Of a DNA stretch of 64,000 nucleotides, positions 22,860 through 46,063 are shown one piece after another. Under the pieces are notes generated by a model, which saw only the letters and a list, made by a program, of their open reading frames with translations, was not told the DNA's origin and did no database searches. The position numbers were made by a program, and so were the translations under genes. The stretch comes from an uncultured Gemmatimonadota bacterium. Its GTDB lineage: Bacteria; JAAXHH01. How positions within the stretch are numbered: position 1 is the first letter of the stretch; every line of letters begins with the position of its first letter. Location of the stretch: positions 3,488,001-3,552,000 of the forward strand of contig OX638340.1 in assembly GCA_951812955.1 (NCBI GenBank), read 5' to 3'.

Positions 22860-23024
22860 AATTCGGTCTCCTGTGCGTGGAAACATGAATATCCCGATAC
22901 CCCTTAACTGTCGCCACCATTGACAACGTCTACTTGTGATCCAAATTACCAGTGCCTGGCCAAATTTACGCATCCACATTGTGGTGGCAGGAAGCGGATG
23001 CGTAATTCGTTGGATGAAACCGTT

Positions 23025-23600
23025 CTACGGGGTAAACACAATGGACACGGTAATCGGCATCCACTGTGTGGCTGATTCTTCCGTCAATGCGTGATTGTAT
23101 CGGGCATCGATCGCAACTGAAATGGAAGGATTAACAGCATACTGAATACCGCCGCCAATAACAAAACTGAACGCATTCTCAGATTCACTGGCTGAGAATG
23201 TTTCACCAAGAAAGGACGCTGAGGCCGTTCCTTCCGCACGGGTCAACCCTAAACCTCCGAGCCCGTAAACGACTAATGGTGTCGATGAGGACCTTACCAT
23301 GACCCCGATATTCCCGCCGGTTAGTTTTGCATCTGCATCCAACCCGGGGATGTCTTCATCCGCACCGTACTTGCTATAGTGCCCTTCTGCCAACGCGTGC
23401 ACATTGTCCAGGATGGGCACCGAAACACCCCCAAGAATCGCAAAGCCCGCCTTCGCTCCATCACCAAAATCTCCTGTGGGAATACCCAACCCGCCACCTA
23501 CTTTAATCGATGGCGACCGCTCCTGAGCCTGCACTGTTTCGATCGTGGATAACGACAGCATGAGTACTGCGCCTAGTAGTGCGAAAATGAACTTTTTCAT
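23025..23600 (-). CDS. Small outer-membrane beta-barrel protein (OmpA/OmpW-like barrel)
   Basis: Signal MKKFIFALLGAVLMLSLSTIETVQAQ. Alternating hydrophobic/Gly-rich beta-strand pattern. GAGGTG RBS. Confidence 0.55.
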   Translation of the reverse strand: MKKFIFALLGAVLMLSLSTIETVQAQERSPSIKVGGGLGIPTGDFGDGAKAGFAILGGVSVPILDNVHALAEGHYSKYGADEDIPGLDADAKLTGGNIGVMVRSSSTPLVVYGLGGLGLTRAEGTASASFLGETFSASESENAFSFVIGGGIQYAVNPSISVAIDARYNHALTEESATQWMPITVSIVFTP

Positions 23601-28829: not shown

Positions 28830-31580
28830 CTAGAACATGAACCCGACGAACAGATACTGGCCGATCTTGTCCTTGCCTTGCATCATCGCCACGCTCAACG
28901 TCGCACGCCGCTCGGCAAAGGAAACCCAGAGCCCGCCGCCCCTGGCGAAATGCCAGTCATCGGCCTCCCGGGGGTCGTCCGCAAAGAATACCCGTCCCGC
29001 GTCGACGGCGGCGAACACGCCGAGTTCACCGGGAACCAGGAACTTGATTCGAGTCAGCCGAAACCGGAACTCGCCGTTCCCGAATACCGCGGAATCCCCC
29101 GCAAATCGATACTTGAGGAATCCCCGCAGGTTGCCGGATCCCCCAATCGCGGCCGCTTCGTGGAAAGGGTACGCTCCAAGGACGGTTATGCCGCCCACGC
29201 GCAGGGCGAGGGTGGGGGAAGCGGGTACGTCAACTGACAGGTAGGTGGACGCCTCGCCGGCAACGTGGCCGAATACCGACTCCACGTCCCAAAGCGCAGG
29301 GTAGAGTTCGCCCGCGAGCCTTAACCGTACGCCCCGCATTGCATGGCCCGGATTGTCGCGGGTATCAAAATCGAGTTCTCCACGAACGCCGATCTGCCCG
29401 AAGCTTCCCGTCCCGTACAGTGGTGTTTCATAGGTGTTGATAAATTTGCCCTCGTTATTGTCCAACAAGGAGTTGGTTATCTTGACGATCGGTCCCCCCG
29501 CCAGATTCCACTTCCCATGAGTCGCCACGGAACCGGAGAAGGATAGCGCGGGCGCGAGAAAAAACTGCGCCTGATCCATCTCGTAGAACGGTTCGTCCTG
29601 CGCGAGGTCCACACCGTTGCCGAAGCCGTTGAAGCGAACCATGTTGATGCCGGAGTATCCCATGTCCAACTGACCGTCCAGGTTACGCAGCAAATGGCGG
29701 AACGTACCGGAATAGGAAACGAAGGGCTTTACTCCTCCCCGGGAGGCGATTCCGATGTCAATAGCATGCCGCGAGGCATACGGATCCTTTCGATAGCCAT
29801 AGTTTAACCGGTTGTAGCGCAGCCCCGTGTAAATCCCGGTATCAGAGGTATAGTTGACGATCGGCTTCGTGCCCGATACGGAGCCCCAGTCGAGTTTGTA
29901 CACGTCCTGCGAAATCGCGCTCTCGTTTCTTGGACGCCTGTACCGGCGCTCGTTGATATGCGCCCTGTTATCGTCGAAGCGGTTCTGCCCGCGCGCGTCG
30001 TAAAACCGCGTCATCCGCCGTCCGGACCGGGACCGGTTCGCGTAGGTGTCGTCACCGCCTCCACCGTCCACGTGAATCCTGATCCCGGCCCGCTCTCCGA
30101 TGACGGCGATCCGATCGTCCCCTCCATGCATGTAGATCCTGACTTCCTTTGTCTCGCGGGGATACAGGATACGGTGGAAGTAGGGGGCATTCTCCGTACC
30201 GGCCAGGCTGATACGAACTTCGAGCGCGCCGTCCTCCCGGTGTTCCAACTCGAGGTGTTCGTCCTCGTCCGTTCCCCTGATCTCGACCTTCCTGCTGATC
30301 AAGCCGTAGTACCGCGCCGCGAACTCGCCGAGTCGATCCCGGCGTACCTTCAACGTCCGGGTAAGGAAGTCCCCCACCTGCCGGTAGTACGGGTCCGGTA
30401 GCCGCCGGACGGCATCCTCGATCACCGGGTTCGACAATTCGGACTGGACCGTGGCGACCACCGCGTCCCACGCGCTCCACTCCAGTTCCGCCAGCAGCCT
30501 GCGGTCCAGTTCCCAGCCCGTGCGGGAGAGTCCCAGATGGTTTGGAAACTTCACCTGAAAGCGGACGAACTTGGGTTCGATACGGCGCACCAGTTTCATC
30601 AATTGGCCATCCAGATCGATAAACGCCTTGTCTCTGTCTTCGGGGACGGGCAACCACGTGTAGCAGTCCCCGACCGGAAACTGCGCCCAGCGCCATTGTC
30701 CCCGGTGCCGGTCCGAATCGCCGATGAGAAAATCGATGAGCCGCGCCTTGAGATAGGCCCGCGCGTCCACGCTTTCGCAGGGCGTCTCCTCGAGGCGTTC
30801 GTACAGTCTCTCCGAGCCGCTCACCCTGCGGGACCCGGCAAACCCCGGCTCGTTACCGGCGGCCTCGGACGGATGTTCCTGCAGGGTACCTATCAGTCCG
30901 GCATATTCCTCGCGAAACGATCCCAGCCTGGGATCATCGGGTATCACCAATAGCTTGTGCGGCGCGTGCAGAATGCCCGTTGCCTCCATCAGAGCATCCA
31001 CCACAAGGCCCGCCGCCGGCAGATGGGCGCTCACGAGATCCTGGATCACGTCCTCGACGACGGTGTCCTTGAGCTCCTCCAACAGCCGCTTGGACGGATC
31101 CTTGTCGATGGAGCGCACCGTGTAACGGCGGCCGTCATTGCCAATAAAGTGCAATGAAATGGACTGGCCGGCGCCGCCCGGCCGCATGGGCGACAATCCG
31201 CCGCCAACTTCATCGAGATCGAGGACCGGAAGCTCGACCGGTGTCGTCCAAAGCTGCCGGTAGTTTTTGCCATAAACCCACTGTCCGTAACTACTTGCCC
31301 TGAATCTTCCTCCCGGTACGGCCGTATGCGTCGAGTCGCCCATCTCGGGGATTGAACGGTGAATCAACTGACCAGCCCGGTTCGCCTCGCTTGCTTGGCC
31401 TTCTTGACCTGCCTGGCCTGGCTGATCTGCTTGATCTGTCTGGCCTGTCTGACCTGCCTGCCCTTCCTGGCCTGCCTGCGCCGCTGCCGAATCAGTACCC
31501 GCAAAAGACAGAACGATTACAGGGAGAGCAATGATCCACCAAAACTTGCAGGGATGGAACAAGCGCACGTTGAGGTTCAT
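28830..31580 (-). CDS. Outer-membrane protein: signal peptide, Q/G-rich repeats, a central domain with a PI3/PI4-kinase-like D..IGDSDRH motif, C-terminal Omp85/surface-antigen-like beta-barrel
   Basis: Start taken as the ATG at 31580 with AGGAGA RBS. Signal MNLNVRLFHPCKFWWIIALPVIVLSFAGTDSAAAQA. Repeat AGQEGQAGQTGQTDQADQPGQAGQEGQ. Motif LIDFLIGDSDRHRGQWRW. The C-terminus has alternating beta-strands and ends ...YLFVGFMF. Confidence 0.5.
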   Translation of the reverse strand: MNLNVRLFHPCKFWWIIALPVIVLSFAGTDSAAAQAGQEGQAGQTGQTDQADQPGQAGQEGQASEANRAGQLIHRSIPEMGDSTHTAVPGGRFRASSYGQWVYGKNYRQLWTTPVELPVLDLDEVGGGLSPMRPGGAGQSISLHFIGNDGRRYTVRSIDKDPSKRLLEELKDTVVEDVIQDLVSAHLPAAGLVVDALMEATGILHAPHKLLVIPDDPRLGSFREEYAGLIGTLQEHPSEAAGNEPGFAGSRRVSGSERLYERLEETPCESVDARAYLKARLIDFLIGDSDRHRGQWRWAQFPVGDCYTWLPVPEDRDKAFIDLDGQLMKLVRRIEPKFVRFQVKFPNHLGLSRTGWELDRRLLAELEWSAWDAVVATVQSELSNPVIEDAVRRLPDPYYRQVGDFLTRTLKVRRDRLGEFAARYYGLISRKVEIRGTDEDEHLELEHREDGALEVRISLAGTENAPYFHRILYPRETKEVRIYMHGGDDRIAVIGERAGIRIHVDGGGGDDTYANRSRSGRRMTRFYDARGQNRFDDNRAHINERRYRRPRNESAISQDVYKLDWGSVSGTKPIVNYTSDTGIYTGLRYNRLNYGYRKDPYASRHAIDIGIASRGGVKPFVSYSGTFRHLLRNLDGQLDMGYSGINMVRFNGFGNGVDLAQDEPFYEMDQAQFFLAPALSFSGSVATHGKWNLAGGPIVKITNSLLDNNEGKFINTYETPLYGTGSFGQIGVRGELDFDTRDNPGHAMRGVRLRLAGELYPALWDVESVFGHVAGEASTYLSVDVPASPTLALRVGGITVLGAYPFHEAAAIGGSGNLRGFLKYRFAGDSAVFGNGEFRFRLTRIKFLVPGELGVFAAVDAGRVFFADDPREADDWHFARGGGLWVSFAERRATLSVAMMQGKDKIGQYLFVGFMF

Positions 31581-31909
31581 TTCAGTCTCCTGGTCTATAC
31601 CTTCAAATAGGCTGGATCCAGTTAACATGAATGATCTATGATTCTTGTAGCGTTACGTCCTTACAGTAGTTTAACGTCGACAGGCAACACAGGGAAGTGT
31701 TACTTACAAGCGTACCACAAACACAACATTTTATGAAGACCGGATGAGGTTTGTCGCGCCGATGAGCGGTCTCATGCCCACCTGGCCGCAGGATACGGTG
31801 AAACTTGACCGGGCGTCGCAGACGCCTTTTCTTTGAATACACACCGTTTTCGAACCATCCCGGTGATTTCATGGACAGTCACCGCCAACACCAACACCTG
31901 GAGCGAAAG

Positions 31910-32524
31910 ATGATCGGAAAACTACGCCATGTCGTTTCGCAGTTGATGATGACCTCCATGCCGATACGTATGATCTCCGTGCCACTGCTGCTAACCGGGT
32001 TTATGATGTGGTCGGTTGTTGGCTGCGCGGAGACTGCGCAGGACGCATCGTCGGATCCGCAGGAGGCTCCTCAGCCGCCCGCGATGTCCGCGGTGCCGGA
32101 TGTGCCTGAGGCGGCATCGCCACCGGCCATGCCTTCGCACGAGCCGGTCTACCTCACCTCGGAGGCCACGGAGAGCATGAACCTGCCCTTTTCGGATGCC
32201 GTGCGCACGGGGCACCTGCTGTTCCTCTCCGGCCAGATCGGAATGGTACCCGAAACGAAGGAACTGGCGCCGGGGGGCATACAGGCAGAGGCCCGTCAGA
32301 CCATGGAAAACATAAAGACGGTGCTCGAGGCCAACGGATCCTCCATGGACCGGGTGATCAAGGCGACGGTCATGCTCGCGGACATCTCCGAGTGGCCGGC
32401 ATTCAACGAGGTGTACGTCACGTACTTTCCCGGCCACAAGCCGGCCCGCAGCGCCTTCGCCGGCAGCGGACTGGCCTTCGGCGCGCGGTGCGAAGTCGAG
32501 GTGATCGCCACGGTGGGAGAGTAG
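31910..32524 (+). CDS. ridA: RidA/YjgF (endoribonuclease L-PSP) family protein with an N-terminal lipoprotein-type signal
   Basis: VRTGHLLFLSGQIGMVPETKELAPGGIQAEARQTMENIKTVLEANG...VKATVMLADISEWPAFNEVYVTYF matches RidA-family signatures. Lipobox MWSVVGC. Alternative starts exist at 31871 and 31949. Confidence 0.7.
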   Translation: MIGKLRHVVSQLMMTSMPIRMISVPLLLTGFMMWSVVGCAETAQDASSDPQEAPQPPAMSAVPDVPEAASPPAMPSHEPVYLTSEATESMNLPFSDAVRTGHLLFLSGQIGMVPETKELAPGGIQAEARQTMENIKTVLEANGSSMDRVIKATVMLADISEWPAFNEVYVTYFPGHKPARSAFAGSGLAFGARCEVEVIATVGE

Positions 32525-32525
32525 G

Positions 32526-32555
32526 AAAGATCAATAGCCATGGCCAAAGGAAAGT
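32526..32555. repeat. Left copy of a perfect 30-bp direct repeat AAAGATCAATAGCCATGGCCAAAGGAAAGT
   Basis: Identical to 32941-32970. This copy retains an orphan ATG (32540) opening a 15-codon ORF, MAKGKCGCLPPLCDY. Confidence 0.9.
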
Positions 32556-32940
32556 GTGGATGTTTGCCACCTCTCTGTGATTATTGATTCAGTTAAATGA
32601 TCGTTGAGTGATTCGAGAAAACCACCAATGCGCCGACTAATCATAAACACACATCACTCGTTTCCGGATGGCAATTGGCTAAGCCATATCCAATCTCATC
32701 ACCGGGCTCGGCGAATTGGAACTGATCGAATTCCTATCATCGTTTTTAAATATCGTGAAAGATGCCGTTCAGGCTGGAAAGGCGGTGTATGATATGTCAA
32801 AATCAGGAAAGAAATCCGCACCCAACGAATCGGAACTCGACCGGGAATACAAGTCACTGATGGACGACCATAGGCGGGTACTGCGCAAGATCGAACGCAT
32901 CGTCGACGCGAAGGCGAAAGAGCAAGGTATCTCTTTCAAT
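32556..32940. mobile_element. About 385-bp low-GC insert (415 bp counting one repeat copy) bounded by the perfect 30-bp direct repeats; carries one small ORF
   Basis: GC is roughly 45% versus about 62% in the flanks. The duplicated 30-mer contains the Shine-Dalgarno/ATG/first 5 codons of the ykgJ-like gene. No recombinase is encoded. Confidence 0.35.
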
Positions 32941-32952
32941 AAAGATCAATAG
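32716..32952 (+). CDS. Small hypothetical protein (78 aa, charged/coiled-coil-like) encoded inside the insert
   Basis: ORF MELIEFLSSFLNIVKDAVQAGKAVYDMSKSGKK...; its stop TAG lies inside the right repeat copy. Confidence 0.3.
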   Translation: MELIEFLSSFLNIVKDAVQAGKAVYDMSKSGKKSAPNESELDREYKSLMDDHRRVLRKIERIVDAKAKEQGISFNKDQ

Positions 32953-32970
32953 CCATGGCCAAAGGAAAGT
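32941..32970. repeat. Right copy of the perfect 30-bp direct repeat; contains the functional start (32955) of the ykgJ-like gene
   Basis: Identical to 32526-32555. Confidence 0.9.
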
Positions 32971-33419
32971 ACTGGCACGACGGATTGCAGTTCTCCTGTC
33001 AGGGATGCGGCCACTGCTGCACCTTCCCGGGTGGATTCGTATACGGCAGCGAGAAGGAGTTCCGGCGCATTGCCGAGTACCTGGACCTGCCGTTCGAGAC
33101 CTTCCTGGAACGGTACACGGAAGAAATCGACGGCCATGTCTCCCTGGTGTCCCCGGATAACGGTCCCTGCGTCTTCTATGACGGGGAATGTACCATCTAT
33201 CCGGTGCGTCCGTCCCAGTGCAGCAGCTATCCCTTCTGGCAGGATATCCTGAAGTCGAAACGCCGGTGGGAACGGGAAGCGGAGACGTGCAGGGGCATGG
33301 AAAAGGGGAAGCGCTGGACGCGCAAGGAGATCGAGGTGGAAGCGGCAAGCCGGACGGAGAACCTGATGGCGGCGAAGAAGCGGCCGCAGTCCGAACCGAG
33401 GGAGGACGTACATGGATGA
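32955..33419 (+). CDS. YkgJ-family cysteine-cluster protein (CxxCxxCC motif)
   Basis: FSCQGCGHCCTFPGGFVYGSEKEF ... CVFYDGECTIYPVRPSQCSSYPFW. The stop overlaps the next start (ATGGATGA). Confidence 0.6.
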   Translation: MAKGKYWHDGLQFSCQGCGHCCTFPGGFVYGSEKEFRRIAEYLDLPFETFLERYTEEIDGHVSLVSPDNGPCVFYDGECTIYPVRPSQCSSYPFWQDILKSKRRWEREAETCRGMEKGKRWTRKEIEVEAASRTENLMAAKKRPQSEPREDVHG

Positions 33420-34791
33420 GCGCATCACGGTTGGAAATGATCGCATCGACACGGTCGAAAATGATCGATTCGACGAAGAAACCGGTTCACGGCGGTTTAA
33501 TCGGCGTGGCTTTCTGAAGATCGGCGCCCTGGCCGGGGTCGCGGGCGTGGCTGCTGCGAATTGTAGCGGCCTGGACGGGTCAGGGAGTGATGCGGGAGGT
33601 GATGAAAGCGCCGCGACCGGCGTTTCTTCGGACCCGGAAGCCGTGGCGGCCGATTTGCAGCAAAATGTCTATACACGAATGCTCGGCGTACGGCCCCACA
33701 TCGGCGCGCACTCGCACCTGTCCAGCATGGGAGGTTCCCGCATGCCGCCGGAAGTCATGGAGGCGATGACCGAGGCCAACCGTTTCTTTGTGGATATGGA
33801 AGACCTGCACGTAGCCGCCGGGCGCCGTCTCGCGGAAATCGCGGGCGCCGAGGATGCCCTCGTATCATCCGGCGCCTTCGCCGCGTTGCTTGTAGGCGCG
33901 GCCGGGGTCCTTACCGGGACCGACGAGGAACGCATGGCGGTCCTGCCCCGTCCGACCTGGCCGAAGGTCGAATGCCTTTTTCAAACGCCGCACCGGTTTT
34001 TCTACGACAAGGTCTTTCAATACGCGGGCATGACCCTGGTGGAAGCAGATACCAGGCAGGCGTACGAAGAGGCCATCACGGACCGAACGGCCCTGCTCGT
34101 GGGACTGTCCTTCATCGAGCATCAGAACACGGGGCGGCCGCCGTTTCCCGCGAAGTACCGCCAGCCCACGCCGCCGGAAACGCTCATGCCGGAGGAGATC
34201 ATCGAAATCGGAAAGCGGAAGGGCGTGCCGGTCATGATCGACATGGCTTCCGACGTGCGTCCCATCAGAAACCTGAAGCGCTATATCGAGATGGGGGCCG
34301 ACCTGGTCATCGTCAGCGGCGGCAAGGCGTTGCGGGGCCCCAATTCGTCGGGCATACTGGCAGGCCGCGGAGATCTGATCGAAGCCGCGCGGATGCAGAA
34401 TGCGCCGAACAACGGCATCGGGCGGGGACTCAAGGTCGGCAAGGAGGAGATCATCGGTCTCATCGCCGCGGTGGAGCGGTTCGTCGAGATCGACGAAGAC
34501 GCAATGATCGCAGGTTGGAACCAGAAGGCCCAGTGGCTGGCGGACCAGCTCCAGGATATCTCCGGACTCGAAGCCAGTTACGAGATCAATACGGCCGGGT
34601 ATGCCGACGTGGAACTGATCTGGGACCAGGAGGTCATTCCCCTTTCCCGGGAAGACGTCGACAGCGCGCTTAAGGATGGGACTCCGAGCATCATCTACTA
34701 CGGGGAAGGTATCTGCACCAAGCAGTTCGAAGACGGCGAGGAGGTCCTCGTCGCCAATCGCCTACGGGAACTCTTTACGCAGGGTAGCTGA
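33412..34791 (+). CDS. SelA-like (L-seryl-tRNA(Sec) selenium transferase fold) PLP-dependent enzyme with a twin-arginine (Tat) signal peptide
   Basis: Tat motif SRRFNRRGFLKIGALAGVAGVAAA. SelA-like lysine region DLVIVSGGKALRGPNSSGILAGRGDLIEAAR. GGGAGG RBS. Confidence 0.55.
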   Translation: MDERITVGNDRIDTVENDRFDEETGSRRFNRRGFLKIGALAGVAGVAAANCSGLDGSGSDAGGDESAATGVSSDPEAVAADLQQNVYTRMLGVRPHIGAHSHLSSMGGSRMPPEVMEAMTEANRFFVDMEDLHVAAGRRLAEIAGAEDALVSSGAFAALLVGAAGVLTGTDEERMAVLPRPTWPKVECLFQTPHRFFYDKVFQYAGMTLVEADTRQAYEEAITDRTALLVGLSFIEHQNTGRPPFPAKYRQPTPPETLMPEEIIEIGKRKGVPVMIDMASDVRPIRNLKRYIEMGADLVIVSGGKALRGPNSSGILAGRGDLIEAARMQNAPNNGIGRGLKVGKEEIIGLIAAVERFVEIDEDAMIAGWNQKAQWLADQLQDISGLEASYEINTAGYADVELIWDQEVIPLSREDVDSALKDGTPSIIYYGEGICTKQFEDGEEVLVANRLRELFTQGS

Positions 34792-34805
34792 CGGAAAGGG
34801 CGTAA

Positions 34806-36014
34806 ATGGCTGATGATCGACCTGACAGTGCAGGATCCGACTTCGACGGCTCCGGCGGCGAACGCCTGACTTATGAAAGTTCCGGTGTGGATTACGACCG
34901 GATAGATCCGCTGAAGGTCCTCGCCCAGCGCGCGGCGCGGGACACGGGGGCCAACCTCGACGGCGCGGGCGCCCGCGAGGTGGCGGCCAGCCGTGGGGAG
35001 TCGGCGTACGTGGTGGACATCGGCGACGCCTATCTCGCCTCCATCACCGAATGCCTGGGTACCAAGGCCCTGGTGGCGGACGCGATGTGTGAGGCGTCGA
35101 GTGTATTGAGGGCGTCAGAGGAGTCGGAGGAGTCAAAGGCGTCGGAGGCGTCGCGAAGGACCTGGTACGACCACATCGCACAGGACACCATCGCCACGGC
35201 CGTCAACGACATTGTCACCGTGGGCGCCCGGCCCCTGAGCATCCACGCCTACTGGGCGGCCGGTTCGTCGGACTGGTTCGACGACGTGGAACGCATGAAC
35301 GACCTGGTCGAGGGATGGAAGGCGGCCTGCGACGTCCTGGGCGTGGCCTGGGGCGGCGGCGAGACGCCGTGCCTGACGGGCGTGGTGGAGGAAGGCGCCA
35401 TCGACCTGGCCGCGTCCTGCGTGGGCATCATCCGGCCTAAATCACGCCTCACCCTGGGCGAAGACCTCAGCGCCGGGGACGCGATCATTCTCCTGGAAAG
35501 CAGTGGCATTCACGCCAACGGCCTCACCCTCGCGCGCAAGCTGTCCGAACGGCTGCCGGAGGGCTATGCCACCCTCCTGCCCGGCGGCCGGACGTACGGC
35601 GTGGCGCTGCTCGACCCGACCGTGCTCTACCCTCCCGTTACCGAAGCGGCCTTCGCGGCCGGTATCGACCTGCGCTACATCGCCAACATCACCGGCCACG
35701 GATGGCGCAAGATCATGCGACACCCCGGCAGGTTTACCTACCGCATTACCGAAGTGCCCCCCGTTCCCGAGGTGCTGAAGTTCATGGTGGATGAGACCCA
35801 ACAGACCGCGGAAGAAGCCTATGGCAGCCTCAACATGGGCGCCGGCTTCGCCCTCTTCGTCCGCCCGGAAGACGGGGACGCGGCCGTGGCGTGCGCCGAG
35901 ACCGAAGGCATCCGCGCTTGGGTCGCCGGCGTGGTGGAAGATGGCCCCCGCCAGGTGGTCATCGAGCCGCTGGGCGTTACGCTCGCCGGGGAAAGCCTCG
36001 CCCTGCGGGACTGA
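34806..36014 (+). CDS. AIR-synthase-related (PurM/SelD/HypE/ThiL-fold) protein
   Basis: N-terminal SGVDYDRIDPLK and DIGDAYLASITECLGTKALVA. C-terminal-domain motifs GDAIILLESSGIHANGLTLARK and NITGHGW. The last 15 coding nt plus the stop lie inside the repeat at 36003. Confidence 0.6.
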   Translation: MADDRPDSAGSDFDGSGGERLTYESSGVDYDRIDPLKVLAQRAARDTGANLDGAGAREVAASRGESAYVVDIGDAYLASITECLGTKALVADAMCEASSVLRASEESEESKASEASRRTWYDHIAQDTIATAVNDIVTVGARPLSIHAYWAAGSSDWFDDVERMNDLVEGWKAACDVLGVAWGGGETPCLTGVVEEGAIDLAASCVGIIRPKSRLTLGEDLSAGDAIILLESSGIHANGLTLARKLSERLPEGYATLLPGGRTYGVALLDPTVLYPPVTEAAFAAGIDLRYIANITGHGWRKIMRHPGRFTYRITEVPPVPEVLKFMVDETQQTAEEAYGSLNMGAGFALFVRPEDGDAAVACAETEGIRAWVAGVVEDGPRQVVIEPLGVTLAGESLALRD

Positions 36015-36070: not shown

Positions 36071-36643
36071 CGTAACTCAGTGCTTTTAACCATACGGAAC
36101 CGCTGATCGACTCGGTTGTTCGGTCGAGAGGTATCGTTTGAGTCCGTTGAACGTACGATCACGTTGAAAATGGTGTCGCTCTGGATGCTTACGAGACTGT
36201 TTTCGACCTTGAACGAGTCTGGAACGAGCCGCTTTGCCCTTCGTCCGCATAGGCCTTGTCACCGTAGATCGCCTTCCCTGGACGGTCAGTTTTATTGACG
36301 CGGACTTCGCGGGGCATTGACACCTGCCTGGGTTGACCTTGTCGAAAGCCCGGATCTGCCACGAATCCCGCTTTACTACCGTCAGTAAGACTTAGTACCC
36401 CCTCCCCTAATATACTGTACGCGCCCTATCCGTTTGTTTACAATATAATCATATTTAATTCTTATAATTTCACATTTAAGCCACGAGTTATTGATCTTAG
36501 ATTTGATAAGTTAAGACTCCAGCGTTAGTATTATGTTGAAAAATCCAGTTTGATTCACATATTGAATTTATCAATCTCTGAAACAACTGACCCGTTCGTT
36601 TGTGAATACAGGGGCAGCATTTTCTTCCAAAGAATGTACCTCG
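36071..36643. promoter_or_regulatory. AT-rich promoter/leader region, paralogous to 2206-2536
   Basis: Low GC, no ORF. Shared strings CACGAATCCCGCTT(C/T)ACTA and ...GTAC(T/C)TCGATG before the start codon. Confidence 0.4.
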
Positions 36644-39482
36644 ATGACTTTCGAGTTCCGACTTACGTCACGGCGTTTGGGACGCTTCCTCGTCCTGCTG
36701 CTCGCCTGCCTTGCCCTTCCTTTGCTCGTCACGTGCGGCAGGGACACTCCCACGCAGTCACGGACCGCGGTCCCGGCGCGGGTAGTGGTCACGCCTGTGG
36801 CCACGGATCTGGCATCGGCAGGACAGACTGTGCGACTCAACGCCCGGGCGCTTGACGACGCCGGCCAAGAAGTCTCGGAGGCTCCTGTTGCCTGGCGCAG
36901 CACCGACGCGTCGGTGGCGCGCGTGAGCGCGGACGGCGTGGTCACCGCCGTGGGGGAAGGCAGCGCCCTCATAACGGCCATGGCCGGCCAGAAGACGGCT
37001 CAAGCGAAGGTGACGGTGGCGGACCCGGTGCGCGCGGCGCTGCGGGCGCTGTACGAGGCGACGGGCGGGGCGAACTGGAAGAACAGCGACAACTGGCTGA
37101 GCGCCCGGCCCGTTGGCGATTGGTACGGGGTAATCGGCGAGCCATCCGGACCGAGCGGGATTTCGCAACGGAGAACCAGCGCCGGCGGACTGACGCGCCT
37201 GGACCTGTCCGGCAACGGATTGACGGGCGAGATCCCTCCCGTGCTGGGCAGCCTGGCCGGTCTTCGTTATCTGGACCTTTCCGACAACGCGCTGTCCGGC
37301 GCGATCCCTCCTGCGCTGGGCAACCTGTCGTCCCTCGAGACGCTGAAGCTGCACGATAACCGGTTGTCGGGCGAGATCCCTTCGGAACTGGGCAACCTGG
37401 AAAGTCTCCGGGAGCTGTCTCTGCACGGCAACGGGCAACTGACCGGTGCGTTGCCCCTTTCGCTCGCCAACCTGGACCGTCTGGAAACGTTATCCCTTTC
37501 GGGTACGCAGTTGTGCGCGCCGACCGATGCCGCGTTTCAGAACTGGCTGCAAGGAATCGCGAACAGGACCGGCATCTTCAATTGCGGCAACGATACGGAC
37601 GGCGACCGGAACGTGCTGCTCGCCCTGTACAACGCGACGGACGGTCCCAACTGGACGACCCGTACGAACTGGCTGAGCACCCGTCCCCTGTCGTCCTGGC
37701 ACGGGGTGGGCGTGAACGCCGCAGGGCGCGTCGACAGCCTGATCCTCGAAGACAACGCGCTGGCCGGACCGATCCCCGCCAGCCTGGGCAGTCTCGCCGG
37801 CCTCGTGGCGCTGGACGCGAGTGGCAACCAGTTGTCCGGCAGCATCCCGGAGGAGCTGGGCGATCTCTCCGGTCTGGTTACGCTTGATCTCAGCAACAAC
37901 GCGTTGACCGGACCGATCCCGCCGGCGTTGTTCAGCCTGCCCAATCTCGTTACGCTGGAGCTCTCCGGCAATCGGTTTACGGATATCCCGGATACAGACA
38001 TCCCGGATACAGGCACCCCGGTCCTGACGGATCGGGATGTGCTGGTTGCGCTCTACAACGCCACGGACGGCGAGAACTGGACGAACAACACCAACTGGCT
38101 GAGCGACAGGCCGCTAGGGGAATGGCACGGGGTTCGCGTCAATGCGGAGGGGCGCGTCGAAGGACTGGACCTTAGCGCTAACCAGCTATCGGGCCCGATC
38201 CCGACCGAACTCGCAAGCCTCACCAAGTTGACACATCTGTATCTTTACGATAACCAGCTATCGGGCCCGATCCCGGCAGAAATCGCAAGCCTCACCAATT
38301 TGACAGAGCTGGACCTTAGCGAGAACCAGCTATCTGGCCCGATCCCGTCCGAACTCGGCAGCCTCACCAAGTTGGAAGATCTGTGGCTTTTCGGTAATCA
38401 GCTATCGGGTCCCCTGCCCGGAACGTTCACCGGTCTGACAAACTTGGAAAGACTGTCCATCGAAGGAACCGGGTTGTGCGCGCCGACGGACGCGGCCTTC
38501 CAGGCGTGGTTGAGGGGAGTCGATGACAAATCTGGAGTGGTCAACTGTGCCGGCTCAAGCCCAGACCTGATCGTCGCATCGCCATCGGTAAGCGACGACA
38601 CCCTGACGACGGGGCAGTCTTTCACGCTGAGCGCGTCGGTGCGCAACCAGGGCACGGGGCGGTCAGCCTCGACGATCCTGCGCTATTACCGGTCTTCGAA
38701 TTCGACCATCTCATCGTCCGATACGCAGGTCGGCACGGACGCCGTGAGCGCACTGGCCGCATCGGGAACGAGCGCTGAATCGATCAGCCTGTCCGCGCCT
38801 TCGAGCGTCGGGACGTACTACTACGGCGCGTGCGTGGACGAGGTAAGCGGCGAGAGCGATACGGGCAACAACTGCTCTACGGGCGTGCGCGTCACGGTGA
38901 TGGTCGAGGATGACCACGGCGATACTCGGTCTGGAGCGACATCCCCTCGCGCTGAGCGGTTCGGTCTCGGGACGGATTGATCCCGGCACTGACGTCGATT
39001 ACTTCGAGATGGAAGTCACCGAATCGGGAACATTGACGGTCAATACGACCGGCAGCCTCGACACAACGGGCGAACTCGAGGACAATTCAGGCTCCCGCTT
39101 GGCGCGTAATGACGATGGCGGCAGCGGATCTAACTTCAGAATCAGCCATTCGGTGAGTGCGGGAACGTATTACGTCAAAGTGGAAAGCTTTAGCTCGAAC
39201 ACCGGGAGCTACACGATCCACGCGAGTCTGGCGAGCGGCGGCGGTGGCGGCGGTGGTGGCGACGGTGCCTGCGTAGCCGGATTGGTCGTGAATCCCGGTG
39301 AGAGTTGTACGTACAAGGGCTATGACTTTTCCGTTAGTTCCACAGGCAGAGGGAGCATTGCCTTTTTCTCCGCGGGAACCGGTATAGATGCAAGGGGTAG
39401 CACGATCAACGGCGTGCGTTGGAACTTCCATGCCACCCGAAACAGTGGTAGTAACAGTTGGACCATCCATACTGCTGATTGA
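36644..39482 (+). pseudogene. LRR - CARDB - pre-peptidase-C-terminal (PPC) domain lipoprotein, disrupted by a +1 frameshift in a C4 run (38941-38944), or a sequencing error; paralog of the 2537 gene
   Basis: N-terminus MTFEFRLTSRRLGRFLVLLLACLALPLLVTCGRDTPTQSRTAVPARVVVTP, BIG2, 3 LRR cassettes, one CARDB, then ...VEDDHGDTRSGATS, all in frame 2. The PPC domain LALSGSVSGRIDPGTDVDYFEMEVTESGTLTV... continues in frame 0. Removing one C from ATCCCCTCG restores TSLALSGS. Confidence 0.6.
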
Positions 39483-41082: not shown

Positions 41083-44000
41083 ATGCCAATATCATACAGG
41101 CTGAGTACAATTTTCAATTTTCATTTCTTTTATAGCGTCGTCGCGGTGCTGTCATTCTTCGTACTGGTTACCTGTGGCAAGGACAGTCCGACCCAACCCA
41201 GGCCGCCAAGTCAACCGCCGGTCCAACCACCCACGCCGGTCCAGCCACCTCCTGCTCCGCAACCCTCTCGCATCACCATCACGCCATCCTTGGTGAATCT
41301 CATGGCGATCGGTCAGACGACGCAGCTCACGGCCTCGGTCCTTGATCAGAACGGGCAGCCAGTTCCCGGCGCGGTCGTTGCATGGTCCAGCAGCGATGAG
41401 GATGTCGCCACCGTGAGCGGCCAGGGGTTGGTAACCGCGGTCAGCAACGGTACGGCCACGATCACCGCCATGGCGGGAAGCGTGTCGGCGACCGCCAGCG
41501 TGCGGGTCTCCCAGACCGCTGGCAGCGTCAAGATCGATCCGGACATGGCCACCCTGATGGCCATTGGGGAAACAGCGCAGCTCACGGCCGTGGTACTCGA
41601 CCAGAACGGGCAGCCAGTTCCCGGCGCGGTCGTTGCATGGTCCAGCAGCGATGAGGATGTCGCCACCGTGAGCGGCCAGGGGTTGGTAACCGCGCTCAGC
41701 AACGGTACGGCCACGATCACCGCCATGGCGGGAAGCGTGTCGGATTCTGCTTTGGTCACGGTCCTCGTTCCCAGAACGGACCGGGATGTTCTGATTGCCT
41801 TCTACGAGAGCACTGGTGGTGAGCAATGGACGGTCAGGTCAAACTGGCTTAGCGTACATCCTCTTGAAACGTGGCTTGGCGTGACCGTCAACTCGGAAGG
41901 CCTGGTAACGGAGATCGACTTGCCGAACAACAATTTGCGCGGACCGCTCACGTCCGAGTTAGGTTATCTGGAAGAGCTCGCGACGCTCCGTCTGAACCAT
42001 AACCAGTTAACGGGTCACATTCCTCCGGAACTCGGCCGACTGGCGAAACTGCGTCACCTGGTGTTGTCCAGCAACCAATTGACCGGAGTGATTCCGACGG
42101 GACTCGGTCAATTAACCGGATTAGAGGAACTGTTGCTGTCCTTCAACCGTCTTTCAGGATCCATACCGGGGGAACTGGGTGACCTGAAGGGACTCAAGAG
42201 GCTGTCGCTTTCAGTCAATGAACTGGATGGACCGGTCCCGGCAGAATTGGGACGACTAAAACAACTGACATCGTTGCGGCTGGACCAGAATCGGTTGTCC
42301 GGGTCAATCCCGCTACACCTTGGCGGGATGACGGTTTTGCGGTCAATGGTACTCGCCGACAATCAGTTAACAGGTGCAATACCAGCCCACCTGTCCTCGT
42401 TGGATAATCTCGAAGAACTGGTGCTGGATCACAACAGACTGGAGGGCGGCATACCCTCACAGTTGTACCGACTTGCCAATCTGAAACGGCTTGGACTCGC
42501 CGGCAACCGGTTATCCGGCGGCGTGCCGGCGTTCTTGGGCAGACTCACCAACCTTACGCACCTGCATCTGTTCTCGAATCGCGGTCTTTCCGGTGTCCTG
42601 CCGCGTTCATTCACCGGTCTTCAACTGGAAGAACTGTTGCTTGAAGGCACGCAGCTTTGCGTACCGCCGGATGACGATTACGAGGCATGGTTGGACCAGA
42701 TTCCAGTGAAGACGGTAACGACCTGCTCCAACCTGGAGTCCAGCGTGTTGGCAACGCTGTACAACGCAACGAATGGAATAAACTGGGCGGATAACACGAA
42801 TTGGCTGAGCGACCGGCCATTGGGTACATGGTATGGCGTGACCACGGACGCCGATGGCTACGTGACGGGTATCGATCTTACGAACAACAATCTGAACGGG
42901 TCCGTACCGGGTGAACTGGCTGGCCTTTCGAAGCTCAAATCGCTGAATCTCAGTACCAACGGTTTTTTGAGAGGGCAGTTACCCCGGGAACTCATCAATC
43001 TTGAACTTCGGGAACTGCTGCTGGAAGACACCCGGTTGTGCGCGCCGCCGGACGCCGAATTCCAGGACTGGCTTCAGACCATTCCGGCAAGAAGCGTATC
43101 CACATGTGATGATCTTGATCTCAATTCGCTTAAGGCCCTGTTCGCGCTCTTCAACGACACGAACGGTCCGGGCTGGCATGACCGGACAAACTGGAACAGT
43201 GATGCGCCGCTGGAGGAATGGTACGGCATCACGGTAGACGAGGACGGCAGGATAACCGAACTGAATCTTGCCGGCAACAATCTCAGCGGCTCGCTCCCCG
43301 CTGACCTGGCAGCACTAACGGAACTGGAACGGCTCGATTTCAGCGACAACGAAGGGCTGACGGGCCCGCTACCGCACGAATGGACAGCACTGACCCTCGA
43401 GTATCTGCGGGTGGAAGGAACGCAGTTGTGCGCTCCACCGGATACCGGGTTTCAGGCCTGGTTGAACGAAATCCCCGAGTACGGCATACCGGAATGTACC
43501 GATACCAGGCCGGACTGGGCTGATACCAATCCTGAATGGGATGTCCTCGAACTCTTGTATAATAGTACGAACGGGAAGGACTGGACGAACAATGAGAACT
43601 GGTTAAGCGAAGCGCCCTTGGATCAGTGGTACGGCATAAAGACGGACGAGGAAGGAAGAGTGACTGAACTTAATCTGGAAGACAACAACCTGTCTGGCGA
43701 ACTACCCCCAAGACTGGGAGATCTAATCGGACTCACGTCGCTGGAACTTTCGTTTAATAAACTTTCGGGTTCAATTCCCGCTGAACTCGGACAGTTGACA
43801 GCCCTTGAAACTTTGTTTCTGGACGATAACGCCCTTTCGGGTCCGATACCCGCCGAACTCGGACAATTTTCCGGCCTGCGAAGATTGGATCTGGGCTGGA
43901 ACGATCTCTCTGGCGTGATTCCCGCTGAACTCAGGCAGTTGACGGGCCTTACCTCGCTCGGTCTGCGCTTCAACAACCTTTCGGGCGTGATTCCCGCTTT

Positions 44001-46005
44001 CCTCGGACAGTTGACCGGCCTTGAAACTTTGTATCTGGACGGTAACGCCCTTTCGGGTCCGATACCCGCCGAACTCGGACAGTTGACCGGCCTGCAATGG
44101 TTGCTTTTGGACGACAACAACCTTTCGGGCGTGATTCCTGCTGAACTCGGACAGTTGACCGGCCTGCAATGGTTGCTTTTGGACGACAACAACCTTTCGG
44201 GCGTGATTCCTGCTGAACTCGGACAGTTGACCGGCCTGCGAAGATTGGGGCTGGGCAATAACAATTTTTCGGGGGTGATACCTGCCGAACTCGGACAGTT
44301 GACCGACCTGGGAAGATTGAGGGTGGACAATAACAATCTCTCTGGCTCGATCCCTCGCGAATTAGGTCAGTTGACAAGCCTCAGAACGCTGGATCTTGGC
44401 TCGAATCCCCTTCTGTCAGGCGCGTTGCCCGAATCTATTACGACGCTGCGACTGGAGACGCTTCTACTGGGTAATACGGCACTCTGCATGCCAATGACAA
44501 CCACATTTCGGACCTGGTTGCAGAGTATTCAGAACCACAGGGTGGCTTCTTGTCTCGAGTACACCGGCGCAACCGCGTACATGACGCAGGCCGCACAATC
44601 ACTGGCCCATCCCGTGCCGCTGGTAGCCGGTGAGGCTGCGTTGCTGCGCGTGTTCATAACAGCCGATTCGGACGTAGGAGCGAGCATGCCTCCCGTTCAG
44701 GCAGTCTTCTTCAACGGGAACCAGATCGTCCACTCTGTGGAGATCCCGGAACAGGATACGGCTGTTCCGGAGCGGTTTGAAGAGGGCGCGCTGATGTATT
44801 CAGCAAATGCGGAAGTGCCCGGAACGGTGGTGATGCCTGGTCTGGAGATGGTAATAAATATCGATACGATGGGATCACCAGGCGATGAATCGAACGTAGT
44901 CTTGCGAATACCTGAAACGGGTCGGCAGCCACTGGACGTGAGAACGGTCCCTCCGTTCAATCTGACCCTTGTACCCTTCCTGTGGATGGAAAGCCCCGAT
45001 ATTGGCGTGTTGGCGGAAACGGACGGCTTGACTGCCAACGATGACCTTTTCTGGCAAACGCGCAATCTGCTTCCTATCGCGGATTTCGAGGTAGCAGTAC
45101 GGGAGCCCGTCTGGACTGCGACGGATCCTCTCTATTCATATGAAATATTGCAGGAAACCAAGGCGTTACGGGTGCTGGACGGTTCTGACAGTTACTACAT
45201 GGGCATCCTCCGGGCAGGCGGCGGACAGGCCGAACTGCCCGGTACCTCAAGCGTGTCTGTCCTCGATGCAGAGGTTATCGCACATGAAATCGGGCACAAC
45301 ATCAATCTCTATCATTCCCCGTGTGGTGGCGCTGGTGGACCAGATCCGCTCTACCCCTATGACGACGGCTCGATCGGTTCCTGGGGTTACGATTTCCGTG
45401 ATGGCACCCTCGTCGCTCCCGGGACAGCGGATCTGATGAGTTACTGCAATCCGCAATGGATCAGCGAATATGGGTTCACCCGGGCTATGAATCACCGGGG
45501 CACAGCGCCGCGGCTGATGGCTGCCATCGCCCGATTCAGTTCGAAGGGACTGCTGGTTTGGGGAGGGGTAAATGAGGAAGGTGAATTGGAACTGGAGCCA
45601 AGTTTTGCGGTCAATTCCGGCCCATCAGTCCCCTTGCTGTCCGGACCTTACCGACTCACGGGTCAAGCCGCGGATGGCATCGTTTTATTCTCCGTAGACT
45701 TCGGAATGGCCGAACTGGGAGACGGACCGGGTAATGCCTTTGCTTTCGTACTACCAGTACAACCCGGCCGGGCGGAAAGGCTTTACACCATTACATTGTC
45801 CGGTCCCGAAGGCGTCGCAACCTTAGACAGGGACGGCGATCGCAGCGCTGCGCTGCTGTTGGATCGGGACACGGGAACAGTCCGCGGTATATTGCGTGAC
45901 TGGCTGGATCCTTCAAGCATATCACCCAGCGCACGGCCCACGCTTCCGGAGCCGGGTCTGGAGATCGTCGTAAGCCCCGGCGTTCCCGAACCGGATTCCT
46001 GGTAG
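41083..46005 (+). CDS. Giant surface lipoprotein (1640 aa): Pro-rich linker, two BIG2 domains, 4 LRRNT-like/LRR cassettes with Cys C-caps, C-terminal metzincin-like zinc metalloprotease
   Basis: Lipobox VLVTCGKDSPT. PPVQPPTPVQPPPAPQP linker. VLATLYNATNGINWADNTNWLSDRPLGTWYGV and similar caps. VIAHEIGHNINLYHSPCGG and DLMSYC. Tail PEPGLEIVVSPGVPEPDSW. Confidence 0.85.
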   Translation: MPISYRLSTIFNFHFFYSVVAVLSFFVLVTCGKDSPTQPRPPSQPPVQPPTPVQPPPAPQPSRITITPSLVNLMAIGQTTQLTASVLDQNGQPVPGAVVAWSSSDEDVATVSGQGLVTAVSNGTATITAMAGSVSATASVRVSQTAGSVKIDPDMATLMAIGETAQLTAVVLDQNGQPVPGAVVAWSSSDEDVATVSGQGLVTALSNGTATITAMAGSVSDSALVTVLVPRTDRDVLIAFYESTGGEQWTVRSNWLSVHPLETWLGVTVNSEGLVTEIDLPNNNLRGPLTSELGYLEELATLRLNHNQLTGHIPPELGRLAKLRHLVLSSNQLTGVIPTGLGQLTGLEELLLSFNRLSGSIPGELGDLKGLKRLSLSVNELDGPVPAELGRLKQLTSLRLDQNRLSGSIPLHLGGMTVLRSMVLADNQLTGAIPAHLSSLDNLEELVLDHNRLEGGIPSQLYRLANLKRLGLAGNRLSGGVPAFLGRLTNLTHLHLFSNRGLSGVLPRSFTGLQLEELLLEGTQLCVPPDDDYEAWLDQIPVKTVTTCSNLESSVLATLYNATNGINWADNTNWLSDRPLGTWYGVTTDADGYVTGIDLTNNNLNGSVPGELAGLSKLKSLNLSTNGFLRGQLPRELINLELRELLLEDTRLCAPPDAEFQDWLQTIPARSVSTCDDLDLNSLKALFALFNDTNGPGWHDRTNWNSDAPLEEWYGITVDEDGRITELNLAGNNLSGSLPADLAALTELERLDFSDNEGLTGPLPHEWTALTLEYLRVEGTQLCAPPDTGFQAWLNEIPEYGIPECTDTRPDWADTNPEWDVLELLYNSTNGKDWTNNENWLSEAPLDQWYGIKTDEEGRVTELNLEDNNLSGELPPRLGDLIGLTSLELSFNKLSGSIPAELGQLTALETLFLDDNALSGPIPAELGQFSGLRRLDLGWNDLSGVIPAELRQLTGLTSLGLRFNNLSGVIPAFLGQLTGLETLYLDGNALSGPIPAELGQLTGLQWLLLDDNNLSGVIPAELGQLTGLQWLLLDDNNLSGVIPAELGQLTGLRRLGLGNNNFSGVIPAELGQLTDLGRLRVDNNNLSGSIPRELGQLTSLRTLDLGSNPLLSGALPESITTLRLETLLLGNTALCMPMTTTFRTWLQSIQNHRVASCLEYTGATAYMTQAAQSLAHPVPLVAGEAALLRVFITADSDVGASMPPVQAVFFNGNQIVHSVEIPEQDTAVPERFEEGALMYSANAEVPGTVVMPGLEMVINIDTMGSPGDESNVVLRIPETGRQPLDVRTVPPFNLTLVPFLWMESPDIGVLAETDGLTANDDLFWQTRNLLPIADFEVAVREPVWTATDPLYSYEILQETKALRVLDGSDSYYMGILRAGGGQAELPGTSSVSVLDAEVIAHEIGHNINLYHSPCGGAGGPDPLYPYDDGSIGSWGYDFRDGTLVAPGTADLMSYCNPQWISEYGFTRAMNHRGTAPRLMAAIARFSSKGLLVWGGVNEEGELELEPSFAVNSGPSVPLLSGPYRLTGQAADGIVLFSVDFGMAELGDGPGNAFAFVLPVQPGRAERLYTITLSGPEGVATLDRDGDRSAALLLDRDTGTVRGILRDWLDPSSISPSARPTLPEPGLEIVVSPGVPEPDSW
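41347..41743. repeat. 255-bp tandem duplication (two BIG2 copies) with a 142-nt core identical except for one base
   Basis: 41347-41488 matches 41602-41743, with a single G/C difference. Confidence 0.85.
44089..44232. repeat. Perfect 2x72-bp tandem repeat (one 24-residue LRR, GLQWLLLDDNNLSGVIPAELGQLT)
   Basis: Read directly. Flanked by more diverged LRR units of the same period. Confidence 0.9.
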
Positions 46006-46063
46006 GATCGTTCGACGAGGACGGACGACCAGTCTTGTTGAATTCAATTCAGGATAGCGCTCT

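Follow-up and report, generated by a model that had tools for sequence, protein, structure and literature searches.

To our knowledge, enzymes dependent on pyridoxal 5'-phosphate (PLP) that act outside the cytoplasm are rare, and the examples that we retrieved, PvdN and PtaA, are both tailoring enzymes. These two proteins cross the membrane by the twin-arginine translocation (Tat) pathway, folded and with PLP bound, and act in the periplasm in pyoverdine tailoring (PMC6206403). Here we describe a block of four genes in a 64,000-nucleotide stretch of the genome of an uncultured Gemmatimonadota bacterium (contig OX638340.1, positions 3,488,001 to 3,552,000; hereafter the window, meaning the whole stretch that was analysed). 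One of these genes encodes a PLP enzyme with a Tat signal; the others encode a RidA-family protein with a lipoprotein signal, a YkgJ-like cysteine-cluster protein and a PurM-like protein.

The described enzymes that this PLP enzyme most resembles are DgaE and Cap15. [quoted passage not shown] Cap15, from capuramycin biosynthesis, is dependent on O2 as well as on PLP and converts the beta-hydroxy-alpha-amino acid 5'-C-glycyluridine into a carboxamide (PMC7497351). Judging from these described substrates, both enzymes act on 2-amino-3-hydroxy acids and neither uses tRNA. RidA proteins hydrolyse the enamines and imines that are set free by PLP-dependent eliminating enzymes. The elimination chemistry of DGL has itself been tied to enamine toxicity and to RidA (PMC9529869). 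Against this background, we give an even chance to the reading that the block is a composite operon, in which a periplasmic deamination pair made of a PLP lyase and a RidA protein is co-transcribed with two cytoplasmic genes.

Organization of the gene block

The block consists of the following features, in order of position:

31910..32524, + strand: RidA gene; lipoprotein signal and Pro-rich linker; PF01042, TIGR00004
32526..32970, + strand: repeat-bracketed 415-bp unit with a 78-aa open reading frame (ORF), between the RidA and YkgJ-like genes
32955..33419, + strand: gene for a YkgJ-like CxxCxxCC protein, 154 aa; PF03692
33412..34791, + strand: gene for the Tat-signal PLP enzyme of the DgaE/Cap15 (selA_rel) branch, 459 aa; PF03841 (SelA) and PF00266
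34806..36014, + strand: gene for a PurM-like protein, 402 aa; PF00586 and PF02769 (AIRS)

The Pfam matches of the YkgJ-like, PLP-enzyme and PurM-like proteins are all over cut-off. An earlier note on this DNA had described the last three genes as tightly packed, and the ORFs agree with it: the ATG of the PLP-enzyme gene and the TGA of the YkgJ-like gene share an 8-nt overlap (33412-33419, ATGGATGA), and 14 nt (34792-34805) separate the PLP-enzyme gene from the PurM-like gene. Its account was right about these three genes and overlooked the RidA gene upstream, the 78-aa ORF and a cysteine (Cys51) that follows the hydrophobic region of the Tat signal.

Gene neighbourhoods were compared in genome loci (given here as L-numbers), of which 80 were fetched with the PLP enzyme (1.36 Mb) and 87 are PurM-like loci; a PurM-fetched set of 0.71 Mb served as control. 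The closest locus in the genome collection belongs to a Gemmatimonadetes metagenome-assembled genome (MAG), isolate APA_bin_41, with a PLP enzyme 95% identical to that of the window.

Export signal of the PLP enzyme

The N-terminus of the PLP enzyme reads …GSRRFN-R31-R32-G-F-L-K-IGALAGVAGVAAAN-C51-SGLDGSGS…, with the Tat motif N30-R31-R32-G33-F34-L35-K36 within a signal region of residues 1-51 (33412-33564; RR codons at 33502-33507, Cys51 codon at 33562-33564). Set against the Tat consensus, (S/T)-R-R-x-F-L-K followed by a hydrophobic stretch, the window protein has N-R-R-G-F-L-K-IGALAGVAGVAAA, and the motif is conserved. R31, R32 and F34 are invariant in an alignment with 15 homologues reaching down to 50% identity, and an RR-x-hydrophobic motif was found within the first 80 residues of 115 of the 120 nearest database homologues, and in 73 of the 81 full-length copies in the genome loci. 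The five homologues without RR begin at or within the catalytic domain. The invariance of RR-x-F, together with these counts, indicates that the Tat signal is a family trait and not a chance match, and the twin-arginine signal that the earlier note had recognized on the middle protein is confirmed.

A lipobox-like cysteine follows soon after the hydrophobic stretch in 85 of the 115 signal-bearing homologues, mostly in the form (A/S/T)-G-C. In the window protein a Gly/Ser/Asp linker then runs to about residue 75. An AlphaFold model built on a 15-sequence alignment (mean predicted local distance difference test score, pLDDT, of 73.8) is disordered to about residue 72, with pLDDT <50 over residues 1-75. 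Taken from its sequence, the PLP enzyme is probably exported by Tat and lipid-tethered at Cys51.

Family placement and active site of the PLP enzyme

The middle protein had been read as carrying a SelA-like PLP fold. Classification with hidden Markov models (HMMs) upholds this at the level of the superfamily, fold-type I, and moves the protein from SelA to the DgaE/Cap15 branch. Its best NCBIfam match is TIGR01437, 'DgaE family PLP-dependent ammonia lyase' (155.5 bits against a subfamily cut-off of 385.3), followed by the DgaE equivalog NF047797 (130.3 bits against 600); the selA model TIGR00474 scores 34.6 bits against a cut-off of 267.9, and the Pfam SelA match is 34.1 bits. Among solved structures, sequence matches were obtained to Cap15 (8t7j, 2.9e-38), DgaE (7lc0, 2.6e-27) and, at about 1e-4, SelA entries. 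Cap15 8t7j and DgaE 7lc0 are also the best fold matches of the AlphaFold model, with a TM-score to target of 0.76, and SelA is lower. Identity is 31% to Cap15 and 26% to DgaE. A routine aminotransferase was considered and rejected, the best families being DgaE, Cap15 and SelA-related ones and not class I-V transaminases. On these comparisons the PLP enzyme is placed in the DgaE/Cap15 branch, predicted to be tRNA-independent, and not with SelA; nor is it a DgaE orthologue. It is a fold-type-I enzyme of the SelA superfamily without a characterised orthologue.

The PLP lysine K305 (SGGK; 34324-34326) and R319 (34366-34368) align to the DGL lysine and to Arg-226, respectively, and both are invariant in the 15 homologues. 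Arg-301, Arg-332 and Arg-346 of DgaE are replaced by gaps or Gln in a pairwise HMMER alignment, which is less certain in this C-terminal part. The missing phosphate-binding arginines fit a non-phosphorylated periplasmic substrate and make a sugar-acid phosphate unlikely. The subfamily also has an element of its own, R94-P95-H96-x3-H100-x-H102, which is invariant (codons of the His triad, 33697-33717). Of the genome copies, all 10 with ≥60% identity to the window protein carry the triad, against 15 of 31 at 45-60% and none of 46 below 45%; it is lacking in DgaE and in Cap15. A metal site and an acid/base loop are possible roles; AlphaFold confidence is poor beside the triad (residues 98-109).

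A recurrent exported RidA as probable partner

The program-made RidA ORF starts at a TTG (31805), and a 204-aa form starting from M36 (31910) is on record in the protein collection. Records from the same contig also include the YkgJ-like and PurM-like products and a 459-aa member of the 90% cluster of the PLP enzyme. Its signal, …LLLTGFMMWSVVG-C, ends in the lipobox V-V-G-C, which fits the lipoprotein consensus, and is followed by a Pro-rich linker of ~45 residues. The protein matches PF01042 at 102.9 bits and passes the cut-off of TIGR00004, 'Rid family detoxifying hydrolase' (110.4 bits against 106.25). Its best matches in the Protein Data Bank (PDB) are 2-iminobutanoate/2-iminopropanoate deaminases and RidA/UK114 proteins (~1e-25). 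The segment 'KPARSAF' aligns to 'LPARAAY' of rat perchloric-acid-soluble protein (PDB 1qah), so that the arginine of PAR is kept. Orthologues with textbook lipoprotein signals were found in L006, L008, L010, L011 and L105.

The recurrence of this partner was analysed with a RidA profile built for the purpose and run over the PLP-enzyme loci and the PurM-fetched control loci. The former yielded 16 RidA genes in 15 of 80 loci, and the latter a single match, which is the block of L105. Most of the 16 RidA N-termini resemble signal peptides by eye or carry an upstream ORF extension. Seven of the 15 loci (L015, L019, L038, L055, L070, L081 and L082) lie outside the clade to which the window belongs; in five of them the RidA gene is ≤~600 nt from the PLP-enzyme gene, and in L019 and L038 the distance is >5 kb. 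Several PLP-enzyme paralogues are present in L055 and L082. One narrow full-text search found no publication in which an exported RidA and an exported PLP enzyme work together.

Two of these loci have unusual arrangements. In L082 (2787-4031; Terriglobales-labelled MAG), an exported 414-aa protein with three RidA domains is encoded 14 nt after an exported PLP-enzyme paralogue. Interspersed among the four PLP-enzyme paralogues of L055 (2918-11098; Bryobacterales-labelled MAG) are two RidA genes with Tat signals and genes for an M19 dipeptidase and a sulfatase.

More generally, the neighbours of distant PLP-enzyme relatives include TonB-dependent receptors, M14 and M19 peptidases, acetamidase/formamidase, PD40 proteins and other Tat-signal class-V PLP enzymes. 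The flavour of these neighbourhoods is catabolic and nitrogen-scavenging.

Conservation of the block

The order RidA–(small ORF)–YkgJ-like–PLP enzyme–PurM-like was found in L004-L011 (L001 corresponds to the contig region of L009), and the four-gene block is confined to one clade of mostly Gemmatimonadota-labelled MAGs. The window and five block loci also have upstream genes in common (Metallophos, Omp85 and others). Outside the clade, none of 72 PLP-enzyme loci has a PurM-like or YkgJ-like neighbour. Conversely, a SelA-like sequence occurs in only 2 of the 87 PurM-like loci, both with the block layout: L095, in which a SelA-like gene is followed by the PurM-like gene, and L105, which holds a remnant. 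The latter (5126-7657), a relative of lower GC content, keeps three of the genes intact (RidA lipoprotein, YkgJ-like and PurM-like); what is left of its PLP gene is a C-terminal remnant of 58 codons (6341-6514) immediately upstream of the PurM-like gene. The conserved neighbourhood that the earlier note had looked to thus exists in related genomes, even where the flanks differ, and the linkage between PLP enzyme and PurM-like protein does not extend beyond one clade.

Within the clade, the YkgJ-like (82-96% identity) and PurM-like (83-92%) proteins are more conserved than the two exported proteins (63-76% and 66-95%). Neither the YkgJ-like nor the PurM-like protein has a signal peptide, so that they cannot act in the periplasm. 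The difference in conservation and the split between compartments argue against a single four-step pathway and fit a periplasmic pair joined to two cytoplasmic genes. Of the periplasmic modification pathway that had been proposed for the three genes, the part upheld is an uncharacterised PLP enzyme with a Tat signal, whose place of action is probably the periplasm; RidA is a likelier partner for it than the PurM-like protein.

As a separate observation, L008 (10001-12811) carries a tandem pair of exported PLP-enzyme genes between its YkgJ-like and PurM-like genes, their products being 70% and 71% identical to the window protein.

A sister clade of PurM

The third protein had been described as SelD/PurM-like, of which the AIRS fold and the likeness to PurM stand and the likeness to SelD does not. 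It matches the purM model TIGR00878 at 159 bits against a cut-off of 236.35, with other PurM-superfamily models at ≤22 bits and no match to selD (TIGR00476) at E<0.01. By the same purM model, members of its clade from other phyla score 167-187 bits and Escherichia coli PurM 515; clade members match over the full length (positions 1-331 of 332). By BLASTP the protein scores 103 bits with E. coli PurM, compared with 31 bits for E. coli SelD; identity to the former is 32% over 272 residues (31% in a separate alignment), within an overall range of 30-32%. The window copy has a 25-aa acidic insert (residues ~96-120), missing from the ~369-aa members found elsewhere.

Members of the clade named Binatia or Anaerolineae are 64-67% identical to the window protein, and a proteobacterial member shares 77-82% identity with those from Burkholderiaceae, Planctomycetes and Gemmatimonadota MAGs. 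They share the motifs TECLGTK (238 of 238) and SSG[IL]HANG (227 of 238), and HAYWA and NITGHG occur in every pattern-matched member (190 and 198). The National Center for Biotechnology Information (NCBI) labels the clade 'AIR synthase-related protein' and, in some records, PurM; a literature search for such a sister clade of PurM found nothing. As far as sequence comparison goes, this is a conserved sister clade of canonical PurM.

The genomic contexts of the clade are varied and of a housekeeping kind. One of them places the gene after gcvP-nadK and before LOG, another divergent from recR-ybaB-dnaX. On three metagenome contigs (L103, L118 and L120), for which proteins of Burkholderiaceae MAGs are the closest relatives with a name, it is divergent from folK-pcnB-HAD-hda or from hda and an AI-2E transporter gene. 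E. coli mirrors these contigs: yfgO (AI-2E family)…hda-uraA-upp is divergent from purM. In Pseudomonas, hda and a PerM-like gene are, we take it, directly divergent from purM; if so, the hda contigs have the PurM-like gene in the slot of purM. No second purM was found in the window, and no purN beside the 87 PurM-like loci. One distant member sits 7 nt upstream of a gene for a PALP-family PLP enzyme.

L087-L090, one contig of an Anaerolineae MAG and three metagenome contigs similar to it, show a further context: the PurM-like gene (5419-6540 or 6001-7122) lies between carA and carB in an arginine operon (argC-argB-argD…argE-like), with a 4-nt overlap with carB in L088-L090. The arrangement carA, PurM-like, carB is an odd place for a purine gene.

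Because of these varied housekeeping contexts, including the slot beside hda, we lean slightly towards a divergent but isofunctional aminoimidazole ribonucleotide (AIR) synthetase, the alternative being a neofunctionalised PurM paralogue that uses another substrate. In true PurMs, the residues that contact ATP, Mg and formylglycinamidine ribonucleotide (FGAM) are fully conserved (PMC8449271), and D65, D94, H190 and H247 have been proposed as catalytic (PMC3261824). The PurM-like protein retains D94, Y108, G140, E141 (in GGET), H190 and N192. H247N, one of its replacements, is also found in archaea whose sole PurM candidate carries it. Two points weigh against an AIR synthetase: 7 of 12 contact residues are replaced (G63I, D65E, G66C, V67L, D107A, S191A and H247N), and these seven replacements are invariant in a family that stays below the NCBI cut-off for PurM.

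Proposed function and alternative explanations

In the composite operon that we favour, the PLP enzyme would fold with its cofactor in the cytoplasm, be exported by Tat and probably be lipid-anchored at Cys51. By analogy with DgaE, it would then carry out an alpha,beta-elimination on a non-phosphorylated 2-amino-3-hydroxy acid, for example an amino-sugar acid or a hydroxy-amino acid. The elimination would set an enamine/imine free, which the lipoprotein RidA would hydrolyse to a 2-keto acid and ammonia. This hydrolysis would protect the exported PLP enzyme and give nitrogen and carbon for uptake. The YkgJ-like and PurM-like proteins would be cytoplasmic and co-transcribed with the pair, standing outside the periplasmic chemistry.

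Several observations pull the other way. They concern (i) the anchor, since the presumed lipobox of the PLP enzyme, A-A-N-C, is atypical when compared with [LVI][ASTVI][GAS]-C; (ii) the reaction, since a lyase role of the exported family members would rest on analogy and the closest solved relative by sequence, Cap15, is a monooxygenase-decarboxylase and not a lyase; (iii) the active site, in which 'KSHHC' of DGL (His-162/His-163) aligns to 'AKYRQP' in a longer loop without a His pair, and the lack of this pair, taken with the subfamily-specific His triad, means that the chemistry may differ from that of DgaE; (iv) the pairing, since RidA adjoins only ~19% of the PLP-enzyme family loci and remains in L105 without a PLP gene; and (v) the linkage, since L005, L006, L008 and L010 retain the four-gene block although their upstream genes differ from those of the window. 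Because of these four loci, the block can be said to outlive local rearrangement, and its retention despite changes of flank would also fit a functional link of all four genes. Mere background synteny as an explanation of the block is in part rejected: five relatives share upstream genes and four keep the block with other flanks.

Points (ii) and (iii) bear on an alternative that we judge unlikely, namely that the exported PLP enzyme tailors some metabolite of the periplasm, for instance a siderophore or a different secreted compound, working either as an O2-dependent oxidase/decarboxylase (as Cap15 or PvdN do) or as a transaminase (as PtaA does). The 31% identity to Cap15 (8t7j) speaks for it, as do PvdN and PtaA, in which a tailoring role goes with Tat export of a PLP enzyme, and the exchange of the proton-donating His-His motif of DgaE for a family-specific His triad. 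However, neither the block nor its conserved flanks hold genes for non-ribosomal peptide synthetases, polyketide synthases or siderophore transport. A recurrent exported RidA fits the release of enamines/imines better than it fits tailoring, and the distant relatives stand in catabolic contexts, among TonB-dependent receptors, peptidases and amidases.

Somewhat less probable still is a single pathway of all four genes, in which a keto acid formed in the periplasm would be taken up and processed by the PurM-like protein as an ATP enzyme, here a neofunctionalised paralogue, and by the YkgJ-like protein as an Fe-S/Zn protein. Such a pathway would account for the tight spacing, for the block being kept in the four loci with other upstream genes, for the invariant replacement of 7 of 12 ligand-contact residues in a clade below the PurM cut-off, and for the distant PurM-like member 7 nt upstream of a PALP-family PLP enzyme. 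Against it are the 0 of 72 PLP loci outside the clade with a PurM-like or YkgJ-like gene, the only 2 of 87 PurM-like loci with a SelA-like sequence, the housekeeping contexts of the PurM-like clade including the slot beside hda, and L105, which lacks the PLP gene and has the other three intact. An obligatory four-gene pathway in particular is weakened by the deletion in L105 and because loci outside the clade show no linkage.

A selenium or sulphur pathway, as the earlier note had suggested, in which a SelA-like enzyme would work with a SelD-like selenophosphate/thiophosphate synthetase, has only the Pfam SelA match (34.1 bits) and the shared AIRS superfamily fold in its favour and is extremely improbable, being rejected by the HMM classification (selA model 34.6 against 267.9; best match of the third protein purM at 159 bits, selD not among the matches), by BLASTP (31 bits to E. 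coli SelD against 103 to PurM), by the different compartments in which the PLP enzyme and the PurM-like protein would be found, and by the lack of any SelD homologue, SelB homologue or tRNA in the 64-kb window. The same note had also allowed for a plain outcome, with a routine aminotransferase beside PurM proper and no conserved linkage; this holds at most in part, since the PLP enzyme is not a routine aminotransferase, while the third gene may well turn out to be a working PurM.

The YkgJ-like gene and the repeat unit

The YkgJ-like protein matches PF03692 at 47.8 bits (cut-off 23) and has the motif C15-x2-C18-x2-C21-C22 and four further Cys. Members of its cluster are named 'YkgJ family cysteine cluster protein' by NCBI, and no related sequence was found among solved structures.

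A perfect 30-nt direct repeat, AAAGATCAATAGCCATGGCCAAAGGAAAGT, is found at 32526-32555 and 32941-32970 (0 expected by chance). The 415-bp unit that it delimits (32556-32970) holds the conserved 78-aa ORF (32716-32952), which is 57-88% identical in L004, L008 and L011. Of the YkgJ-like start, the first repeat copy leaves behind a stub of 14 codons (MAKGKCGCLPPLCD*). In L010 and L006 the unit is missing, and the RidA stop is directly followed by the YkgJ-like start. Two units stand in tandem in L004, and a junction copy lies upstream of RidA in L005. The element has the look of a small unit that duplicates or inserts where the RidA and YkgJ-like genes meet.

A promoter/terminator scan gave no convincing site within the block and no terminator 3' of the PurM-like gene, and was uninformative. 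A search for riboswitches and other RNA elements with Rfam came up empty for the whole window, as it did for the upstream region at E≤1.

Surroundings of the block

Upstream of the block, 28830-31628 (- strand) encodes a 932-aa protein of the Omp85 superfamily with an N-terminal low-complexity repeat, (Q-A/T/P-G-Q-E/T/A)n, which is syntenic in five relatives. Large secreted proteins flank the block on both sides (20382-22145, - strand; 36602-38980 and 41083-50176, + strand). The products of 20382-22145 and 36602-38980 have Big_2 and leucine-rich-repeat (LRR) domains, plus CARDB or PKD, and LRR-bearing relatives of the ORFs 41083-46005 and 46064-50176 adjoin the block in L001 and L010. The segment 22001-24000 has a GC content of 0.47, compared with ~0.60 elsewhere in the window. 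Two small ORFs, 22272-22979 and 23025-23600 (both - strand), have signal-peptide-like N-termini; the former has no Pfam match.

Breadth of the family and possible significance

An exhaustive search of 1.84 billion representatives (50% identity clusters) for the DgaE-like superfamily gave 2,101 clusters at a threshold of E≤1e-10 and 523 when it was tightened to E≤1e-30. A crude RR pattern was found in 35 of the 130 nearest full-length representatives, a few of them being false positives in the core, and the rest are cytoplasmic forms of ~375 aa. The MAGs that encode exported DgaE/Cap15-branch enzymes carry the labels Gemmatimonadota, Acidobacteriota, Latescibacterota and Chloroflexota, among others. 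A literature search for exported members of the DgaE-like family found nothing.

A more general proposal is that Tat-exported, membrane-tethered enzymes of the DgaE/Cap15 branch may be widespread periplasmic deaminases of amino acids or amino-sugar acids that work with an exported RidA, that the subfamily of the window may use the His triad as a new active-site element, and that the co-conserved PurM sister clade, its ligand-binding residues rewired, may catalyse an ATP-dependent reaction different from AIR synthesis. We put this forward as a speculation and, taken as a whole, think it rather improbable. If true, the work with RidA would make the first example of damage control against enamines/imines beyond the cytoplasm.

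What the data do offer is a PLP lineage other than that of PvdN and PtaA with conserved Tat signals, in several phyla and often with several paralogues per locus. The pairing with an exported RidA suggests that the periplasm, too, is troubled by reactive enamines/imines, and that these bacteria, the organism of the window among them, set ammonia and keto acids free from amino compounds ahead of uptake. The analysis also flags a conserved PurM sister clade, left unnamed by NCBI, which would be either a true AIR synthetase or a new enzyme.

Comparison with known systems

The PurM-like clade differs from PurM by extra segments (ASRGES and SDWF) and a C-terminal extension. The window RidA differs from canonical RidA in being predicted extracytoplasmic, by virtue of its lipoprotein signal and linker.

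Of the enzymes to which the PLP enzyme can be compared, SelA has the same superfamily, the Pfam SelA match, the SGxK PLP motif and Foldseek matches at 20% identity in common with it. However, TIGR00474 is far under its cut-off, the export signal is incompatible with a tRNA substrate, and no Pfam match to the SelA N-terminal domain family was found in the window protein, whose N-terminus consists of the Tat signal and a low-complexity linker. DgaE belongs to the same SelA-related fold-type-I branch, its PLP lysine and carboxylate arginine are kept in the window enzyme, and its elimination yields an enamine/imine, the product type on which RidA acts; it differs in that the window enzyme has a Tat signal, a linker and a probable lipid anchor, with no dga phosphotransferase system (PTS) or aldolase genes nearby. 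Cap15 is the closest solved relative by sequence and has a beta-hydroxy-alpha-amino acid as its substrate. It is a Streptomyces biosynthetic enzyme, whereas the window gene has an exported RidA partner and no surrounding biosynthetic cluster, and its 399-residue deposited chain aligns only from query residue 89, so that it has no counterpart to the ~88-residue signal-plus-linker.

The likeness of PvdN and PtaA to the window enzyme is one of description, as fold-type-I PLP enzymes exported by Tat folded with PLP. PvdN carries out an oxidative decarboxylation to succinamide and PtaA a transamination; the window locus differs from theirs in having no siderophore context and in having an exported RidA. 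What is new in comparison with these two enzymes is the DgaE/Cap15 lineage, the probable lipid anchor, the recurrent exported RidA and the breadth of the family.

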